DNA of 64,000 nucleotides from an uncultured delta proteobacterium. Its GTDB lineage: Bacteria > Myxococcota > Myxococcia > Myxococcales > Myxococcaceae. The stretch is from positions 32,001-96,000 of the forward strand of contig CAVZMH010000014.1 in NCBI GenBank assembly GCA_963776345.1, in the 5' to 3' direction. The notes below the pieces were generated by a model. It made no database searches. It saw nothing but the letters and a program-made list of their open reading frames with translations, and had not been told where the DNA came from. The translations under genes were made by a program, and so were the position numbers. Below are positions 16,368 to 62,100 of this stretch, piece by piece. How positions within the stretch are numbered: the stretch's first letter is position 1; every line of letters starts with the position of its first letter.

Positions 16368-17492
16368 TTGGCCGGACCTCACCACGTCGTCCTCGTCCCG
16401 GGCTTCTTCGGCTTCGCCAACCTGGGCGACTTCACCTACTTCGGGCACGTGCGCGAGCTGCTCGGCGAGGTGGGCCCCCCGGCCGGCCTCGACGGGGAGG
16501 TCCGCATCGTCCTCACCGAGCCGTCGTCCTCGCTGCCCCGCCGGGCCGCGCTCCTCGCCGAGGCGATCCACCGCCTGCTCGAGCAGCGCGGGGGGGTGGT
16601 GAGCATCGTCGGCCACTCCACCGGCGCGCTCGACGCGCGGCTGATGCTCAGCCCCGGCTCCATCCTCCCCACCAAGGTGGACGTCGAGCAGTGCGCCGCC
16701 GCGGTGCACGGGGTGGTCGGCGTGTCCGCACCCCACCATGGCACGCCGCTCGCCCAGCACTTCACCTCGCTGTTCGGGGGCCAGCTGCTGAAGCTGCTCT
16801 CGCTGGCCACGGTGTACTCGCTTCGCACCGGGCGGCTCCCGGTGGGCGTGGCGCTCCGGCTCGCGCGCCTGCTCCGCCGGAAGGACGCAACCCCCACCGG
16901 CGTGGTGGACCAGCTCTACCTCCAGCTGCTGTCCGACTTCGCCGGCAAGCGCCGCCGCGCCATCGAGCAGTTCTTCTCCAGCGTGCACAGCGACCAGGGG
17001 CTGGTGCCGCAGCTCGCCCCGAGGGCCATGGAGCTCTTCAACGCCGCGACCGCCGACCGCCCGGGCGTCCGCTACGGCGAGGTGGTGACCCGGGCGCGTC
17101 CCCCGGGGCTGCGCTCGCTCACCCGGGCCGGGTTCAGCCCCTACGCCCAGACGACCCACGCGCTCTACGTGGTGCTGTACCGGCTCGCCCGCGGCCGACC
17201 CACCGATCCGCCCGGGCATCTCTCGCCCGAGCACCGGAAGTTCCTCCGCCGCGCCTACGGGAAGGCGCCCGACCACACCGCCAACGACGGCATCGTCCCC
17301 ACGCTGAGCCAGGTGCGCGGCCAGCTCGTCGCGGCGGTGTGGGCGGACCACCACGACGTGCTCGGGCACTTCCACAAGCCGCGGCACGTCCCGCCGCACT
17401 TCGACTGGGTCGCCTCGGGCACCGGCTTCGACCGGGAGCACTTCGAGGCGGTGTGGAAGGCGGTGGCGCGCTTCCTCGGCGAGGCGCGCTAG
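16368..17492 (+). CDS. Alpha/beta-hydrolase, triacylglycerol lipase-like
   Basis: VLVPGFFGF, GHSTG nucleophile elbow, PHHGT, NDGIVP. Confidence 0.85.
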   Translation: MAGPHHVVLVPGFFGFANLGDFTYFGHVRELLGEVGPPAGLDGEVRIVLTEPSSSLPRRAALLAEAIHRLLEQRGGVVSIVGHSTGALDARLMLSPGSILPTKVDVEQCAAAVHGVVGVSAPHHGTPLAQHFTSLFGGQLLKLLSLATVYSLRTGRLPVGVALRLARLLRRKDATPTGVVDQLYLQLLSDFAGKRRRAIEQFFSSVHSDQGLVPQLAPRAMELFNAATADRPGVRYGEVVTRARPPGLRSLTRAGFSPYAQTTHALYVVLYRLARGRPTDPPGHLSPEHRKFLRRAYGKAPDHTANDGIVPTLSQVRGQLVAAVWADHHDVLGHFHKPRHVPPHFDWVASGTGFDREHFEAVWKAVARFLGEAR

Positions 17493-18585: not shown

Positions 18586-18936
18586 TCAGCCGCTGATCGG
18601 GAAGATCAGGCGCAGCCGCTGGAACATCTGCCGCGGGCACTCGACCGGCCGGTTGCACGACCGCGGCACCTCGCGGCGGCAGACGTGGACCTGCTTCTCC
18701 TCCGGCTCGCGGGCCGGAGGCGCCTCGCGGAGCAGCCCGGGCGCGGCGAGCACGCCCAGCCCGGCGGCCCTGGCCGCCGTGGTCCCGTGACCGCCGGCAG
18801 TCGCGACCAGGGTCGGGGCGAGGTGCGCCAGGACCGACGCCGCGCGCCAGGCCGAGGACGGAACCAGCGCGGCGCCGGCGAGGAGCAGGACCAAGGCGGC
18901 GATGGAGCAGGCGACGACCGGGGAGTCCTTGCGCAT
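18586..18936 (-). CDS. Small hypothetical protein: N-terminal hydrophobic segment, Cys-containing tail
   Basis: ATG at 18936 preceded by GAGGTA; MRKDSPVVACSIAALVLLLAG...HVCRREVPRSCNRPVECPRQ. Confidence 0.5.
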   Translation of the reverse strand: MRKDSPVVACSIAALVLLLAGAALVPSSAWRAASVLAHLAPTLVATAGGHGTTAARAAGLGVLAAPGLLREAPPAREPEEKQVHVCRREVPRSCNRPVECPRQMFQRLRLIFPISG

Positions 18937-19054
18937 GGCGTACCTCGCGGTACCCGGGGAAATGTCACGGGGCCCGGGCCGGGGCAAGGCGGGGTCGCAG
19001 GGGTTGCAGCCGGCCTGGCACCGGCTGCAGGGAAGCGCGCCCTGGCCCTCCGCG

Positions 19055-19972
19055 TCAGCCGCCGACGGGTGGTGCGTACGACACGTGCTCCACGGGCTTC
19101 GCGGTGCGCGGCGCCGGCCGCCGGGCGAGCTGCGGGAGCGCGAAGGGGCGCCACCACGGCCGCAGGTAGAGGACCAGCGCGGCGGACATCGCGATGGCGA
19201 ACGACGGCAGGCCATGGACCAGCGCGATCCCGAGGTGGAACACGATGGCCACCGGAAGCAGACGGAGGCGGAACCGGGTGGGCGCGACGAGGGCCGCGGC
19301 GAGGCATAGCTCGAAGACCAGCACGCTCCAGGTCAGCGGAACCACCAGCACCGTCGGGCCGATCCGGTCGGTGATCCAGCGCATGACGCCGACGGTTCCG
19401 AACTTCGGGTGGATCCACCAGTAGTAGAGCGCGGTGCCGTTCGCCCACTCCTCGGTGGGGAACTTCAACACCGCGGCGAAGAGGTAGATGACCGAGATCT
19501 GGAGGCGGAGGAGGAGCAGACCCGTCTGAGCGGTGATCGACGCCACGACTCCGCCGTCGCCCGTTCCCTGCCACTGCCAGACGCGCCGGTCGGTGAGCGC
19601 CACCGGGATGAGCAGCAGACTGAGCGTCGCGGCGACCTGGTCCCCGCCGTCGATGACCGAGGCCGAGGCGGCGAAGCTGTACGAGATCCACCAGTGCGGA
19701 ATGGCGGTGAGCCGGGGCCGCCAGCCCACGATGACCAGCACCAGCACCACGATCGCCAGGAGCTTCGCCAGGACCAGGTGATTCCGGGCGAGGAAGAAGA
19801 GGCTCGCCCCGGCGATGGCCCGGCGATCGATGATCCCCACGTCCTCGATGAGCAACGGCTGGAACAGCTGGTCGGTGGAGCTGGCCAGGAGCGTGAGGAG
19901 CGTCGCCGTGGCGAGCAGCGAGCGGCCCACGCCATAGACGTTCGTCCAGGGTCTATCCGCGCGGGTCAGCAC
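19055..19972 (-). CDS. sdpB: SdpB-family (HTTM-like) membrane peptide-maturation protein
   Basis: PWTNVYGVGRSLLA, GWRPR, HWWISYS, DGGDQV, TDRRVWQW, EWANGTALYY, FHLGIA; GTG start overlaps the sdpA stop. Confidence 0.88.
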   Translation of the reverse strand: MLTRADRPWTNVYGVGRSLLATATLLTLLASSTDQLFQPLLIEDVGIIDRRAIAGASLFFLARNHLVLAKLLAIVVLVLVIVGWRPRLTAIPHWWISYSFAASASVIDGGDQVAATLSLLLIPVALTDRRVWQWQGTGDGGVVASITAQTGLLLLRLQISVIYLFAAVLKFPTEEWANGTALYYWWIHPKFGTVGVMRWITDRIGPTVLVVPLTWSVLVFELCLAAALVAPTRFRLRLLPVAIVFHLGIALVHGLPSFAIAMSAALVLYLRPWWRPFALPQLARRPAPRTAKPVEHVSYAPPVGG

Positions 19973-20475
19973 TGGACGTTCAGCAAGGCATACGTCGCGG
20001 GGAGCGCGATCTTGCCGCTCGAGCGCGCCCAGGCCCAAGGGACCGGCGTGCGCGAGAGGAGCAGCACCTCACCGCAGAGCTGCGGATGCCGGGCGAGGTT
20101 TCTCACCGTCAGCCCGGGTCCGGTGGTCTCGGGAAATTGACCGGGCGCGAGGGTGGCACCCGACCACTCTGTCCCGATCTGCGAGACCAGGGTCCGGAGC
20201 TCGGAGCTGTGGTGCACCGGCCCGCGCCGGAGGCCAAGGAGGTTGCCTGCGCTGGCGAACGGCGCGTCGGCCTGCACCCAGGCGCCGTCGCGCCAGCGGA
20301 ACGCCTGGAGCCGGTCCTGGAGCGGCGCCGCGAAGTAGCCCCAGAACTGTGGGGCGATGGCGAGCATCTGCAGCCGCCGCGTGGTCGACGGCCGCAGAGG
20401 GGACTCCAGCCAGGCGACGCAGGTCAGGCAGACGATCGCTCCGGCGAGGATCGTCGCCACGCGCCGCGGGCGCAC
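19966..20475 (-). CDS. sdpA: SdpA-family antimicrobial peptide system protein
   Basis: N-terminal TM; PQFWGYF (cf. PQGWxFF), NLLGLRR, PQLCG, PVPWAW. Confidence 0.82.
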   Translation of the reverse strand: MRPRRVATILAGAIVCLTCVAWLESPLRPSTTRRLQMLAIAPQFWGYFAAPLQDRLQAFRWRDGAWVQADAPFASAGNLLGLRRGPVHHSSELRTLVSQIGTEWSGATLAPGQFPETTGPGLTVRNLARHPQLCGEVLLLSRTPVPWAWARSSGKIALPATYALLNVQC

Positions 20476-20476
20476 C

Positions 20477-21445
20477 TCAGCGCTCGCCGGAGGCGGGCCG
20501 CTCGAGCGTCATCGCGACCGAGTTCGCAAGCTGCTCGGAGAAGAGCCGGTTGTTGAAGAGCGCCCAGGCGGGCGCCACGGTGACGTCGGCGACGGGAAGG
20601 TTGCCCCGGACGCCCGCGACGGGAAGGTTGCCCCGGACGTCGGCGACGGGAAGGTTGCCCCGGACGTCGGCGACGGGAAGGTTGCCCCGGACGTCGGCGA
20701 CGGGAAGGTTGCCCCGGACGTCGGCGACGGGAAGGTTGCCCCGGACGTCGGCGACGGGAAGGTTGCCCCGGACGCCCGCGACGGGAAGGTTGCCCCGGAC
20801 GCCCGCGACGGGAAGGTTGCCCCGGACGCCGGCGACGGGAAGGTTGCCCCGGACGTCGGCGACGGGAAGGTTGCCCCGGACGTCGGCGACGGGAAGGTTG
20901 CCCCGGACGTCGGCGACGGGAAGGTTGCCCCGGACGTCGGCGACGGGAAGGTTGCCCCGGACGTCGGCGACGGGAAGGTTGCCCCGGACGTCGGCGACGG
21001 GAAGGTTGCCCCGGACGTCGGCGACGGGAAGGTTGCCCCGGACGTCGGCGACGGGAAGGTTGCCGGGGGCGCCCCGCACCGACGTCTGGTTCACGACCTG
21101 CACCGCGCGCGCGAGCATCGCCCGCACCGTGGCCGGGTTTCCGCTCCGCGCCGCCCGCGCGAACTCGGCCACGAACCCCGGCTGCGCGCTCTCGACCGCG
21201 TCGATGAGCCGCGCCCGCGCGTCGGACATCGCCGCCAGCTCGCCCTGGTCACTCACGTAGAGTTCGGGCCGCAAATGGTCGCGCGCCTCGGGGAGAACGC
21301 TGGCCAACGGCCCGCTCCCGAACACGACGCCCTCGAGGATCTGCCGATCCGTGAAGTCCTGATTGACCGCGACACCCTGCCCACAACCGAGCGCAGCAAC
21401 CCAGCAGAACGACGTCACGACGACCAGCTTCGCCGAGCGGTGCAT
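20477..21445 (-). CDS. sdpC: SdpC-family precursor with 18x 9-aa tandem repeat
   Basis: Signal peptide with possible lipobox (AALGC); prodomain ILEGVVFGSGPLA...PE...PGFVAEFARAARSGNP; repeats; tail RLFSEQLANSVAMTL; 1 nt from sdpA. Confidence 0.78.
   Translation of the reverse strand: MHRSAKLVVVTSFCWVAALGCGQGVAVNQDFTDRQILEGVVFGSGPLASVLPEARDHLRPELYVSDQGELAAMSDARARLIDAVESAQPGFVAEFARAARSGNPATVRAMLARAVQVVNQTSVRGAPGNLPVADVRGNLPVADVRGNLPVADVRGNLPVADVRGNLPVADVRGNLPVADVRGNLPVADVRGNLPVADVRGNLPVAGVRGNLPVAGVRGNLPVAGVRGNLPVADVRGNLPVADVRGNLPVADVRGNLPVADVRGNLPVADVRGNLPVAGVRGNLPVADVTVAPAWALFNNRLFSEQLANSVAMTLERPASGER
20579..21064 (-). repeat. 27-bp coding tandem repeat x18 (GNLPVA[D/G]VR)
   Basis: Plus-strand unit CCGGACGTCGGCGACGGGAAGGTTGCC; 486 nt; 14 Asp and 4 Gly variants. 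Confidence 0.98.
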
Positions 21446-21578
21446 GTGGTCCCCCTGGTGAGGTCAGGCGTGCAGAACGTCATGAGACACACGAATGCCT
21501 ACCCTCGGCAAGTCCTCACCGACCCGCGGGGCTGTTTGCACCTCGGCTCTCCAGCCGGGATGGGTCAAATGGGACAGC

Positions 21579-28347: not shown

Positions 28348-28392
28348 AGGTGCCAAACACCTCGTTACCGAGGTGCCAATCACCTCGTGACC
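28348..28392 (-). repeat. REP tandem pair
   Basis: AGGTGCCAAACACCTCGTTACC followed by GAGGTGCCAATCACCTCGTGACC. Confidence 0.9.
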
Positions 28393-28396
28393 GACC

Positions 28397-52878: not shown

Positions 52879-53188
52879 CCCGGGGAGGTGCCGGGGGCGG
52901 TGCCCTCGACGGAGGTGCTCGACGGAGGTGCTGCTCGACGGAGGTGCTGCTCGACGGAGGTGCCAAACACCTCGTGACCACCTCGTGACCACCCGGAGGG
53001 GGGAGGGGTGGTGCCGCCCGAGAGGTGCCAAGCACCTCGTTACCCGCCCGAGAGGTGCCAAGCACCTCGTTACCGGCGCCGCTCGCCCGAGCCCGGGGAG
53101 GTGCCCCGGGGAGGTGCCAAACACCTCGTTACCTCCCCCGAGGGGGCCGCCTGGGAGGTGCCAGACACCTCGTGACCACCTCGTGACC
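52879..53188 (-). repeat. REP array: 5 full copies plus partial repeats
   Basis: GAGGTGCCA(AA/AG/GA)CACCTCGT(T/G)ACC at 52957, 53022, 53052, 53111, 53155; CTCGACGGAGGTG x4 at 52905-52962. Confidence 0.92.
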
Positions 53189-56006: not shown

Positions 56007-57526
56007 AAGGTGAAGCGCGCGGCGAGCCCGCCGCCGCCCGGGCCGAAGACCGGGGTGACCTGGACCCGCGGCTCGGCGGCGGCGGACGAGAGCCGCTTGG
56101 AGAGGTTGCGGTTGTACCCGTCCGCGAGCCGGGCGGTCTCCTCGGGCGTGGTCACCATGTCCGGGGTGAGGGCGGCGATGGTGAGGAGCAGCCCCCCGAC
56201 CAGGACGCCGCCGCCGATGAGCATGGCGCCGTAGAGGCTGGTCTGCGCCGAGCGGTCCACGCACTTGTTGTAGCTGACCGTGCCCTGGGCGAAGCAGGCG
56301 GGGTCGTTCAGCGACTGCGCGTTGGTGCTCACGTAGATGCCGGACGCGACACCGGCGGCGAAGGTGAGGAACGAGAACCCGTAGAGGATGCCTCGCTCGC
56401 CCTTGCGCGCCTCGGAGGCCGTGGCGAGGTCGCCCCGGCCCACCATCCGGTAGAACTCCCCCGCCGAGAGCTGCTTCCCGCCGTGCAGGGTGAAGACGTC
56501 CGTCTGGTGGGGGCGGACGCGGAGCATGTCGCGGTAGTAGATCTCGCGCGCCAGGCCGGGTGGCGGCAGCTCATCCTCCACCGGCTTGCCGGGCTGCGCC
56601 TGGACCGAGTTCGTTCCGGGCGCGGGCGCCGGAGCGGCGGACGGGGCCTGCTGCACCGGGACGGCGCCGGGCGGGAGGAGAGGCTTCGCCGGGGCGCTCT
56701 GGGCGGGCGGGGCAGCCGGAGCGGTCAGCTGCTGCGCGGGTGCGGCCTGAGGTGCCGGCGCCACGAGCGGAGCGGCCACGGCGGCTCCGGCGGCGGGCGC
56801 GGAGTACTGCTGCGGGGGAGGCGCAGCGTACTGCTGAGGGGGCGCCGCGACTTGCTGCGGCGGTGGGGCGGCATACTGCTGCGCGGGTGCGGCCTGGGGC
56901 GCGGGCGCCGAGTACTGCGGCGGCGCGGCGTACTGCTGCACCGGTGCGCTCTGCGGTGGGGGCGCCACGAGCGGAGCGGCCACGGCGGCTCCGGCGGCGG
57001 GGGCGATACTGCTGCGGGGGAGGCGCGGCGTACTGCTGAGGGGGCGCCGCGACCTGCTGCGGCGGTGGGGCGGCATACTGCTGCGCGGGGGCGGCCTGGG
57101 GAGGGGGCGCGGCGTACTGCTGCGGGGGAGGTGCGGCGTATTGCTGCGCGGGAGGTGCGGCGTACTGCTGCGGGCGCGACCTGTGGCGGCGGCGCGACCG
57201 TTGCTGCGGCGGGGCGTACTGCGCCGGCGCGCATACTGCTGCGGGGGCGGTGCGGCGACCTGCTGCGGAGGCGCGGCCTGGGGAGCGGGCGCGGCGTACT
57301 GCTGCGGGGGCGGCGCGGCATACTGCTGCGGCGGCGCGACCTGTTGCTGCGGTGGGGCGTACTGCGCCGGCGCATACTGCTGCGGGGGCGCGGCCTGAGG
57401 CGGCGGCGCGACCTGTTGCTGCGGTGGGCCGTACTGCGCCGGCGGATATTGCTGCGCGGGCGCGGCCTGGGCCAGCGCCAGAGCGGGAAACAGCACACCC
57501 ATCACACAACCGAGCCGACCCAGCAT
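56003..57526 (-). CDS. Secreted/membrane protein with QQYAAPPP repeats; compensating frameshifts around 57000-57230
   Basis: GGAGG SD; signal ...ALALA; repeats continue in an alternative frame; C-terminal TMs; ends ARFTF. Confidence 0.7.
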   Translation of the reverse strand: MLGRLGCVMGVLFPALALAQAAPAQQYPPAQYGPPQQQVAPPPQAAPPQQYAPAQYAPPQQQVAPPQQYAAPPPQQYAAPAPQAAPPQQVAAPPPQQYARRRSTPRRSNGRAAATGRARSSTPHLPRSNTPHLPRSSTPRPLPRPPPRSSMPPHRRSRSRRPLSSTPRLPRSSIAPAAGAAVAAPLVAPPPQSAPVQQYAAPPQYSAPAPQAAPAQQYAAPPPQQVAAPPQQYAAPPPQQYSAPAAGAAVAAPLVAPAPQAAPAQQLTAPAAPPAQSAPAKPLLPPGAVPVQQAPSAAPAPAPGTNSVQAQPGKPVEDELPPPGLAREIYYRDMLRVRPHQTDVFTLHGGKQLSAGEFYRMVGRGDLATASEARKGERGILYGFSFLTFAAGVASGIYVSTNAQSLNDPACFAQGTVSYNKCVDRSAQTSLYGAMLIGGGVLVGGLLLTIAALTPDMVTTPEETARLADGYNRNLSKRLSSAAAEPRVQVTPVFGPGGGGLAARFTF

Positions 57527-58967: not shown

Positions 58968-59101
58968 GGTCACGAGGTGCAGGTAACGAGGGGTAACGAG
59001 GTGCTTGGCACCCCGGTAACGAGGTGCTTGGCACCCTAGGTAACGAGGTGCTTGGTAACGAGGTGCTTGGCACCTCTGGTAACGAGGTGTTTGGCACCTC
59101 G
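58968..59101 (+). repeat. REP direct tandem array (7 full or partial units)
   Basis: GGT(A/C)ACGAGG starts at 58968, 58982, 58992, 59015, 59039, 59054, 59078. Confidence 0.95.
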
Positions 59102-59143
59102 GGTCTTGACGCGGACTGCACCGGCGTTCAGGAATGCGGGCCC

Positions 59144-62100
59144 ATGGCCGCGCCGCAGATCCCGCTCCAGTTCGCGTCCGCGGCGGACGCGGTCGACCCC
59201 GCACTCGCCGCGTTCCATCCGCTCGTCCAGCGCTGGTTCCGGTCGACGCTCGGGCAGCCCTCCGAGCCGCAGAGCCGCGGGTGGCCCCGCATCCTCGCCG
59301 GCGAGGACGTGCTGCTCGCCGCGCCCACGGGCTCCGGCAAGACGCTCTCGGCGTTCCTCGCCGCGCTGGACCGGCTCCTGCGGCTCGCGCTCGAGAACCG
59401 TCTCGAGGACCGGACCTCGGTGGTCTACGTCTCGCCGCTGAAGGCGCTGGGGAACGACGTCCAGAAGAACCTCCTCGGTCCGCTGGAGGCCATCTACGAG
59501 CTGGCGGCAGCCGAGGGGCTCCTCCCCGAGCCGATCCGCGTCCAGGTGCGCACCGGGGACACCCCGGCCAGCGAGCGGGCGCAGATGCTCCGCCGTCCTC
59601 CGCACGTCCTCATCACCACGCCCGAGTCGCTCTACCTGGTGCTCACCGCGGCGCGTGGCCGCGAGACGCTCCGGCACGTCGACACGGTCATCGTGGACGA
59701 GATCCACGCGCTCGCCCGGGACAAGCGGGGCAGCCACCTCGCGCTCTCGCTCGAGCGGCTCAAGGCGCAGGTGCGGCGCCGTCCCCAGCTGATCGGCCTC
59801 TCCGCCACCCAGAAGCCGGTCGAGACCTTCGCCTCGTTCCTCACCGGCCGTCCCGAGGGGTGCGCGGTGGTGCAGGTGGGGCACCTCCGGAAGTGGCAGC
59901 TCTCGCTGGAGACGCCCGAGGACGCGCTGAGCGCCGTGGCCACCCACGAGATGTGGGGCCAGGTCTACGACCGGCTGGTGCAGCTGACCTCCGAGCACCG
60001 GACCACGCTCATCTTCACCAACACCCGCAAGCTCGCCGAGCGCGTGGCCCACGACCTCGGAACGCGCCTCGGTCCAGGGACGGTGTCGGCGCACCACGGG
60101 AGCATGGCCCGCGAGCTACGGCTCGCCGCGGAGGAGAAGCTCAAGCGGGGCGAGCTCCGGGCGATGGTGGCCACCGCCTCGCTCGAGCTGGGGATCGACA
60201 TCGGGGCGGTGGACCTGGTGGTGCAGCTCGGCAGCCCGCGGGGCATCGCGCTGTTCCTCCAGAGGGTGGGCCGGGCCGGTCACTCCCTGCACGGGGTGAG
60301 CAAGGGCATCCTCTTCGCCCTCACCCGCGACGAGCTGGTGGAGTGCACGGCGCTGCTCCGTGCGGTCCACGACGGCGAGCTCGACGCGGTGCGGATGCCC
60401 GAGGCGCCGCTGGACGTGCTCGCGCAGCAGATCGTCGCCGCCTGCGCGGTGGATGCCTGGGACGAGCGGGCGCTCTACTCGCTGGTGAAGCGCGCCTGGC
60501 CGTACCGCGACCTCGGCTGGGAGACGTACGCCCAGGTCCTCCAGATGCTCTCCGAGGGCGTGAGCGAGCGGCGCGGCCGGATGCGCGTCCACCTCCACCG
60601 TGACCGGGTGAACCACGTGCTCCGGGCGCGAAAGGGCGCGCGGCTCACGGCGCTGATGAACGGCGGTGCGATTCCCGACACGTTCACCTACCCGGTGGTG
60701 GCCGAGCCCGACGGGCGGCAGGTGGGGACGCTCGACGAGGACTTCGCGGTGGAGACGATGGCCGGGGACGTCTTCCTGCTCGGGAGCACCAGCTGGCGGG
60801 TGCAGGGACTCCGGGGTGGGGTGGTGCGCGTCGAGGACGCCCGGGGCGCTCCGCCGAGCGTGCCCTTCTGGAGAGGCGAGGCGCCGTCCCGGACGGACGA
60901 GCTGTCACGCGAGGTGGGCCGGCTCCGCGACGAGCTGCTCGAGCACCCCTCGCCGGCGGAGTGGCTGCAACGGCTCGGCCTCGGTCCGCGGGACGGCGAG
61001 TCGCTCTCGGAGTACCTGCGCGCGAGCCATCGGATCCTGGGGGCGCTGCCCAGCGCGCGCATGGTCATCGCCGAGCGCTTCTTCGACGAGGCCGGCGGGA
61101 TGCAGCTCATCCTCCACGCCCCGTTCGGCGGGCGCATCAACCGGGCCTGGGGGCTCGCGCTCCGCAAGCGCTTCTGCCGCACCTTCGACTTCGAGCTGCA
61201 GGCCGCGGCGACCGACGACGGCATCCTCCTCTCGCTGGGAGAGCAGCACAGCTTCCCGCTCGCGGACATCTTCGAGTTCCTGCACCCGGACACGGTCGAG
61301 TCGGTGCTGGTGCAGGCGGTGCTCCAGGCGCCGCTGTTCGGGACCCGGTTCCGCTGGAGCGCCACGCGGGCGCTCGCGCTCTCCCGTTACCAGAGCGGCG
61401 GCCGCGTTCCGCCCCACATCCAGCGGGCGCGGGCGGAAGATCTCCTGGCGGCGGTGTTTCCCGCGCAGGTGGGCTGTCAGGACAACCACGGGGGCGCGGA
61501 GATCGAGCCGCCCGACCACCCGCTGGTGCGCGAGGCGCTGCGCGACTGCCTCACCGAGGCGCTCGACGTCGAGGGCCTGAAGAACGTGCTGCGGGCGCTG
61601 CGGGCGGGGGAGATCCGGACCCTGGCGCGGGACCTGCCCGAGCCGTCGCCGCTGGCCCACGCACTCCTGAACTCCCAGCCGTACACCTTCCTGGACGAGG
61701 CGCCGCTCGAGGAGCGCCGGGCCCGGGCGGTGCAGGTTCGCCGCGCGTTGCCGGCCGAGGACGCCGCGGGGCTGGGGGCGCTCGACGCTTCCGCCATCGA
61801 GCAGGTCGTCGCCGATGCCCGGCCGCTGGTCCGTGACGCCGAGGAGCTCCACGACTGGCTGCTCGCGGCGGTGCTGGTGCCGGCCGAGGGCGTTCCGTCG
61901 CACCTCCTGGAGCCGCTCGTCGCCACCGGTCGCGCCGCCACTCTCCACGTCGGATGGTAACGAGGTGCTTGGCACCGCAGGTAACGAGGTGCTGTCCGGC
62001 GGTAACGAGGTGCTTGGCACCGCGAGGGAAGGGCGCGCCTTCGTCGTCTGCGCGGAACGGATCCTGCACGTGCTTGCCCTCTTCCCGGGTGGCCGGGTGG

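Follow-up and report, generated by a model that had tools for sequence, protein, structure and literature searches.

The window analysed here, a 64,000-nucleotide stretch of contig CAVZMH010000014.1 (assembly GCA_963776345.1) from an uncultured member of the Myxococcaceae, encodes an sdpC-sdpA-sdpB operon whose predicted precursor carries a hydrophilic tandem array, with one Asn-Leu-Pro in each unit, where ordinary SdpC proteins have a hydrophobic core. Differing arrays occupy the same position across the genus. The comparison shows that tandem duplication has multiplied a separate unit in each lineage, with strict constraint only on an Asn-aliphatic-Pro motif (hereafter N-x-P). We tentatively interpret the product, at a little less than an even chance, as an exported multi-core precursor in which every N-x-P would be modified before the chain is split into short peptides.

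The tight coupling of the three genes proposed in an earlier sequence-only reading of this DNA was confirmed from the sequence, with a 1-nt gap between sdpC and sdpA and a 7-nt overlap between sdpA and sdpB (Table 1). Searches with hidden Markov models bore out the family assignments, for SdpC in part. SdpB scored 227.7 bits against TIGR04033 (cut-off 178.4), and SdpA scored 62 bits against PF17418 (cut-off 25), a family matched by 11 of 11 clade members, and 52 bits against TIGR04034, slightly below the cut-off of 53.1. The precursor reached 49.9 bits against TIGR04032 (SdpC; E 3e-13), below the cut-off of 99.2, and the match comprised only the prodomain (profile positions 2–92 of 172, precursor residues 26–120). 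Five clade relatives scored 48–58 and two remoter, array-less relatives likewise just 56–60, which indicates that the cut-off of TIGR04032 is narrow. Precomputed annotation assigned the precursor to PF26137, and the top matches of an ESM Atlas feature search were all PF26137 clusters (0.78–0.83), which we treat as a lead only. In an alignment of 76 sequences, the invariant residues of SdpA were P42, W45, F48, E92, C134, the PWAW stretch at 146–149 and C169.

The ordinary layout of the family, consisting of a signal, a prodomain, a core and a follower helix, was established from 20 over-cut-off sdpB loci of other Myxococcaceae genera (L059–L078) and from a wider list. These 20 loci share the G-C signal, the prodomain, the core and the follower helix with the window operon, most of them also the sdpC-sdpA-sdpB order; 18 have one hydrophobic core and two have other low-complexity cores, and an N-x-P array is absent from all 20. 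Hydropathy over 19-residue windows exceeded 1.6 in 112 of the 124 other SdpC-family proteins versus 0 of the 35 clade proteins, whose maxima ranged from 0.25 to 1.25, and two or more N-[LIVM]-P motifs after residue 100 occurred in none of the 124. The SDP toxin core of B. subtilis carries a disulfide formed by a Cys pair. Cys was absent from all 37 clade cores examined and present in 53 of 110 ordinary hydrophobic cores, so that it is not universal in the family. The proposed loss of a hydrophobic, Cys-bearing core is thus supported by both counts. In the AlphaFold2 model of P0020, a relative with two units, the block means of the predicted local distance difference test (pLDDT) were 91–98 for the prodomain, 51–65 for the array and 93–97 for the follower helix, which fits a predicted scaffold whose folded parts present the core as a loop. 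A G-C lipobox stands at the end of most N-termini, relatives mostly reading V/L-V/I-G-C-G-Q-G (22 N-termini compared), and by the known lipobox rule these precursors are probably lipidated. The lipid anchor suggested in the sequence-only reading fits most members but not the long-unit subgroup, P0020 and P0021, in which the lipobox Cys is missing. Among SdpC proteins of other genera, L073 (G190) and L074 (G210) have low-complexity cores with Asn-Thr-x-Ser-Gly-like pentads or degenerate Tyr/Asp/Thr-rich repeats, possibly independent moves toward repeat cores. In P0136 and P0138, an SdpC-like prodomain, core and follower are joined to some 300 aa of further repeats at the C-terminus, which contain D.DGD motifs and look FG-GAP-like by eye.

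The window array comprises 18 N-L-P units, namely 13 GNLPVADVR, four GNLPVAGVR and a terminal GNLPVADVT; the 18 copies of GNLPVA(D/G)VR first described were correct in number, but 17 end in Arg and the last in Thr. The core was also rightly described as charged and free of Cys, as it contains 18 K/R and 14 D/E residues. In the DNA, the array is a 27-bp tandem repeat of 17.9 copies with 98% matches; an exact 17-nt piece of it occurs 18 times versus 0.06 expected by chance, and the inner units show one synonymous and one non-synonymous variant. Contigs from four public DNA runs were mapped onto window positions 19000–20850. Those of X1, which may be the source sample, and of X2 stop at 20611, within the last array unit, and no contig of the four runs spans the array. 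X4 yielded two contigs of 57 nt that match the repeat exactly, with depths of 15.5 and 6.1 versus 3–4 on the flanks, which indicates that other samples also contain the unit in multiple copies. The repeat itself is genuine; the count of 18 copies comes from one assembly.

Collecting SdpC homologs with internal repeats, as the sequence-only reading had advised, revealed arrays across the genus, each lineage with its own unit. The units are 8–31 aa long and present in up to 24 copies, with one unit in two short-read assemblies. Dominant units include ARGPNVPVDT/LV (19 copies), RGQNLPVDT (24 copies), SPNIPAPAM, STNLPTAT and ALRDEYFNIPINTKAP, and a long-unit subgroup has Pro/Arg-rich 26–31-mers containing ANVP, ANMP, ANLP or ANIP. 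Copy numbers were 14–24 in assemblies of at most 24 contigs, and 1–14 or array-broken in fragmented assemblies, so the low counts may be collapsed. In a motif-agnostic count of gapped residue pairs, N-x-P alone was repeated in all 37 cores, the next best pair reaching 22 of 37. By the definition used, the residue between N and P is one of V, L, I and M throughout the 34 distinct units, and the spacings reveal no unit that lacks the motif. Across the inner units of 15 arrays, the codons of N, x and P showed 0 amino-acid and 15 synonymous variants, versus 44 amino-acid and 19 synonymous variants at the eight flanking positions (Fisher p 4e-7, a value overstated since the arrays are related); some of the flank variants are alternating unit types, not point changes. 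Copies within an array share 77–97% DNA identity in the relatives. We infer that one ancestor lost the hydrophobic core, that selection then kept many Asn-aliphatic-Pro copies, and that slippage and homogenisation may renew each array.

Other features attributed to the repeat fared less well. The R-G cut site is not conserved, since R-G stands in every unit of just 2 of 33 arrays, and no universal motif other than N-x-P was found among the arrays compared that could mark a cut; arrays in which half or more of the units have K/R 1–4 residues ahead of the Asn number 18 of 23 among those with short units and 0 of 10 among those with long units. A conserved 9-mer product in two variants is not supported, as the units are 8–31 aa long and differ between lineages, the D/G variants being one point change within a slippage repeat, and cyclisation found no support. 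The underlying multi-core idea was strengthened by genus-wide arrays around an invariant N-[LIVM]-P, while the R-G cut and the specific 9-mer fell away. Repeated units, a constant motif under purifying selection and adjoining genes for putative modifying enzymes, by which multi-core precursors of peptides made on the ribosome and modified post-translationally (RiPPs) are recognised, were all found.

Within the genus (uncultured Myxococcaceae), SdpB, and with it the syntenic operon, was found in 11 of 12 genomes, the sole miss being 68% complete; among 28 genomes of other genera, two gave weak matches at the HTTM level only. The prodomain was found in 10 of the 12, and G003, where it was missed, has an array end at a contig edge. 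In the 26 loci examined, wherever the flanks were assembled, the gene order was pccB, sdpC, sdpA, sdpB, a variable insert, orf117 and rce1. Identity to the window proteins was 93–95% for pccB (intact assemblies), 48–64% for the prodomain, 47–65% for SdpA and 68–74% for SdpB. A prodomain profile searched against 1.84 billion representatives gave 517 matches, 16 of them below 1e-30, and the best 150 of the 517 were examined. The SdpB proteins of the repeat clade, about 77 clusters at ≥64% identity, form a separate subfamily, with at least 64% identity within and at most 50% outside. Repeat-bearing prodomains fell on one side of a branch versus 20 outgroup rows (support 90/86, 88% of bootstrap trees), in a tree of 96 columns whose bootstrap had not settled.

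SdpB contains an HTTM domain (PF05090) in 12 of 12 members. Its predicted model (pLDDT 90.8) retrieved GGCX, the vitamin K-dependent carboxylase, at all Foldseek ranks from 1 to 15. A profile alignment of the two (E 9e-6) starts at GGCX residue 171, so that Asn159 and His160 of the Glu pocket are unaligned, as is Tyr395. Within it, SdpB Lys170 (codon 19463–19465), invariant in 76 sequences, aligns with GGCX Lys218, and His246 aligns with His287; Lys218 is described as catalytic in the available text of bioRxiv 2025.02.09.637231. On the basis of these models, SdpB is predicted to have the membrane-domain fold of the vitamin K-dependent carboxylase with the catalytic lysine kept. Unlike GGCX, the Sdp system is split into two genes, does not keep Lys217 and Asn290, and has units that contain no conserved Glu or Asp (D at +4 occurs in 11 of 34 distinct units); since a conserved acidic residue is lacking, Glu carboxylation of the units appears unlikely. 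The genome contains menA.

A DUF5819 and HTTM pair has been modelled as a split GGCX, according to the accessible part of bioRxiv 2026.08.19.745780. Linaridin clusters encode an HTTM protein (PMC9927463, available portion) and epimerise peptides (PMC10406935, PMC9811515 and PMC10373908, likewise in the portions available). SdpA gave an atlas lead to DUF5819 of 0.82 and an hhalign probability of 1% with a 2-sequence profile. We take DUF5819 to be LinL. DUF5819 and HTTM gene pairs also occur in another genus of the family (L122 and L123, in G317 and G268), where the HTTM partner keeps the SdpB motifs DGGD and K...W..GTA.

Ordinary SdpC cores offer a further hint. Among 110 ordinary hydrophobic cores, an Asn-Asn distance of 6 occurred 53 times versus 7.1 in shuffles and a distance of 12 occurred 26 times versus 6.2, while no other distance from 1 to 11 was enriched. 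Counted per protein, Asn-x5-Asn was present in 27 of the 110 versus at most 12 in 300 shuffles, and these fell into 20 clusters at 40% identity; examples among the wider SdpC family (P0024–P0155) are P0057, P0074 and P0155. Repeated NX5N is the hallmark of the polytheonamide D,L beta-helix (PMC10849128), and polytheonamide carries 18 D-residues (PMC9811515), as stated in the available parts of these articles. No radical S-adenosylmethionine (radical-SAM) epimerase was found in the three-gene unit of ordinary sdpABC operons, which leaves SdpAB as the epimerase candidate. The periodicity hints that SdpAB may epimerise peptides. Two points weigh against this: 83 of the 110 cores have no Asn-x5-Asn, and the six-residue period could have another structural cause. 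In the literature, as far as its available text extends, SdpA and SdpB are described just as needed for SDP processing, with no statement of their chemistry found.

In our favoured scheme, the precursor would be exported via its secretion signal and, in most members, lipidated. SdpB and SdpA would form a split vitamin K-carboxylase-like membrane enzyme at the outer face of the inner membrane, acting once per N-x-P unit on a substrate docked through a scaffold of prodomain and follower. Within this model, the chemistry would, with somewhat better than even probability, be epimerisation at C-alpha, a change from L to D without a shift in mass, of either Asn or the aliphatic residue; Lys170 would serve as the base or activate the quinol. 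A protease outside the operon, either a housekeeping enzyme or the Rce1-like neighbour, would free short peptides, often cutting near the Arg/Lys located 1–4 residues before Asn; this is the weakest step of the scheme. What is released would be a peptide that is hydrophilic, made in high copy and specific to its lineage, serving as a signal or narrow-spectrum effector and not as a membrane-inserting toxin. In a wider proposal, which we consider rather unlikely as a whole, SdpAB would be a split enzyme, linked to menaquinone and related to the vitamin K carboxylase, that acts as an epimerase on exported peptides; ordinary SdpC toxins would be unrecognised D,L beta-helical peptides with N-x5-N ladders, and this genus would have turned the system into a multi-core factory for short, lineage-specific D-residue Asn-x-Pro peptides.

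Several other explanations compete with modification followed by release. SdpAB might modify N-x-P on an array that stays whole, either uncut on a lipid-anchored surface or periplasmic protein or excised once in an SDP-like manner, with valency as the selected property and an adhesin, a kin-recognition tag, a protease-resistant decoy or a matrix polymer as possible roles. We rate this main rival as rather unlikely. It would agree with the lack of a dedicated protease in the operon and of a conserved cut motif, with the lipobox of most members, with the free length of the spacers (Pro/Arg-rich in long units), and with the fast divergence of the prodomain (48–64% against 93–95% for pccB), as is often the case for recognition proteins; in B. 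subtilis, moreover, excision of one internal segment yields a single product, according to the available text of PMC6818787. Nevertheless, anchoring is not essential, since the long-unit subgroup, P0020 and P0021 have lost the lipobox Cys; of the 23 short-unit arrays, 18 have K/R shortly ahead of the motif; and prodomain and follower preserve the arrangement of a precursor family in which the member studied releases its core. Alternatively, N-x-P could itself be the cleavage signal for SdpAB, acting alone or by activating Asn, and the variable spacers would be the products, short in most lineages and Pro/Arg-rich, antimicrobial-peptide-like in the 26–31 aa subgroup. This would remove the need for the missing protease, follow the usual pairing of a constant motif with variable spacers in multi-core precursors, and make SdpAB the long-sought SDP processing enzyme. 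We consider it quite unlikely: none of the 124 ordinary SdpC proteins has two N-[LIVM]-P motifs and Pro occurs at N+2 only once among core Asn residues, so ordinary cores are not bounded by the motif; SdpB matches a carboxylase fold and no protease family was matched; and some spacers are very low in information (Thr/Ser/Ala 8-mers in P0017 and L080).

All units are in frame, N-x-P is kept in 37 of 37 cores though the units otherwise differ, its codons vary only synonymously, sdpA and sdpB are intact and conserved, and the SdpB relatives of this clade make up approximately 77 clusters. These observations largely refute a neutral slippage repeat, functionless after loss of the toxin core, in a decaying or repurposed sdpC, and make it highly improbable, even though copies are near-identical in DNA (98% in the window, 77–97% in relatives) and copy number ranges from 1 to 4 among near-identical soil sequences. 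An assembly artefact, a concern raised in the sequence-only reading, has next to no probability. No read or contig spans the window array and exact copy numbers are assembly-dependent, but repeat-only contigs at raised depth were recovered from another study's run, dozens of assemblies made independently have differing arrays at this site, and contigs from G003, G005 and G006 break off at their arrays or within them.

Compared with known systems, the operon is closest in family content to B. subtilis sdpABC, which encodes the SDP cannibalism toxin, and its paralogue yitPOM, made up of the same three families (TIGR04032, TIGR04033 and TIGR04034). As described in the available part of PMC6818787, the likeness includes a secreted precursor, conserved in its N-terminal region and variable towards the C-terminus, and SdpA and SdpB as sole accessory genes. 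The window system differs in its hydrophilic tandem array, its lack of a hydrophobic toxin domain and of core Cys, its lipobox signal, its C-A-B gene order and the SdpI not found in the genome. The system belongs to the three SdpABC families and would work like SdpABC, but since the single hydrophobic core and the Cys pair are missing and SdpI was not found, it should not be classed as an SDP-type toxin. Linaridin systems (LinG or the HTTM part of LinH/CypH, together with LinL) resemble it in combining an HTTM protein with a small partner and a ribosomal peptide, and are reported to have epimerase activity. In contrast to them, the operon contains no alpha/beta-hydrolase LinE, decarboxylase or methyltransferase, and its precursor is a 322-aa exported protein without a short Thr-rich core and without Thr in the window repeat units. 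Given the absence of LinE and the wrong precursor type, the system is not a linaridin. Multi-core RiPP precursors are known among cyanobactins, graspetides, fungal Kex2-processed repeats and plant BURP precursors. They share tandem units in which a constant motif is amplified inside one precursor, but they employ other enzymes, and here the array lies between two folded elements of an exported precursor with no dedicated protease encoded. The polytheonamides and aeronamides (proteusins) have Val/Ala-rich N-x5-N cores, as do the 27 ordinary SdpC relatives noted above; they use radical-SAM epimerases and methyltransferases, whereas the repeat clade has neither a hydrophobic core nor N-x5-N. As far as the text of the literature was available, no repeat-bearing SdpC and no class of extracytoplasmic D-residue Asn-x-Pro peptides were found described; the Fig. 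S5 alignment of PMC6818787 and papers on SdpAB or linaridin enzymology may bear on the former.

No protease, exporter or tailoring gene is present in the sdpC-sdpA-sdpB operon. SdpI (PF13630) was not found in G000 (98% complete) by a search that detects the B. subtilis protein and did not extend to the YitQ type, in line with a non-toxic product. The nearby Rce1-like gene, one of ten PF02517 genes in the genome, is closely matched (E<1e-40) in 10 of the 12 genomes of the genus and in 0 of 12 from the family's other genera, and 20 sdpABC loci of other genera, spanning about 7.7 kb, showed no such gene. As a lead only, the Rce1-like gene is a candidate processing or immunity gene. The 117-aa open reading frame (ORF) upstream of it has a hydrophobic N-terminus and a Cys-containing C-terminal motif, and matched no Pfam or NCBIfam family. 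An alpha/beta hydrolase (16368–17492, plus strand; 88–92% conserved) was considered as LinE and rejected, being convergent and occurring in many genera without SdpB.

Table 1. Coordinates of the operon, its precursor elements and the conserved downstream genes in the window
Feature	Position	Strand	Description or basis
sdpC-like precursor, 322 aa	20477..21445	minus	ORF; signal peptide, prodomain, repeat array and C-terminal follower helix
sdpA, 169 aa, GTG start	19966..20475	minus	hydrophobic N-terminal segment, then soluble domain
sdpB, 305 aa, GTG start	19055..19972	minus	HTTM membrane protein
Ribosome-binding-site-like AGGGGG, 5 nt upstream of precursor ATG	21451..21456	minus	read from sequence
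Signal peptide with terminal lipobox-like A-L-G-C (Cys21)	21383..21445	minus	sequence; 22 N-termini compared
Helical SdpC prodomain, about residues 30–124	21074..21358	minus	
Array, 18 x 9-aa units (27-bp tandem repeat), one Asn-Leu-Pro each	20579..21064	minus	
C-terminal follower helix, conserved	20498..20572	minus	PAW.LF..RLF.EQLA.S.A..L; family-wide L..EQ...SIA..L
117-aa ORF (orf117), no known family	18586..18939	minus	3' of sdpB; 67–79% identity in relatives
Rce1-like (CPBP) intramembrane protease, PF02517	17521..18477	minus, same as operon	syntenic

The variable inserts after sdpB are unrelated genes, comprising extracytoplasmic-function (ECF) sigma/CHAT or pectinacetylesterase-like genes. 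An orphan fragment of about 40 aa matching the sdpB 3' end at 63% identity (G000:C22:347707-347829; L029 5711-5860) directly precedes an ECF sigma, anti-sigma and CHAT/TPR cassette, and a like cassette, whole or partial, directly follows sdpB in L115, L120 and L085; since the cassette lies beside both sdpB and the orphan fragment, it may have moved carrying the fragment. Elsewhere in the window, a short repeat that is dispersed in both orientations (GGTAACGAGGTGCTTGGCACC and its reverse complement) forms small tandem clusters at 28348–28394, 52968–53118, 58992–59104 and 61956–62024, resembling a repetitive extragenic palindromic (REP-like) intergenic element, and positions 56729–57469 hold a long degenerate tandem array whose minus strand reads Pro/Gln/Tyr/Ala-rich repeats.

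The usual substrates of SdpA and SdpB are hydrophobic, toxic and hard to analyse. The repeat clade, in contrast, provides a natural substrate scan, in which dozens of soluble units vary everywhere except at Asn-x-Pro and are present in many copies per molecule. Since the window units should in addition be releasable by trypsin, SdpAB chemistry becomes directly testable. Furthermore, the Asn-x5-Asn periodicity of ordinary SdpC cores would predict D-amino acids, and thus D,L beta-helical products, in a widespread toxin family. Finally, this fast-diverging, genus-wide peptide system may serve lineage-specific signalling or recognition in the uncultured soil myxobacteria that carry it.

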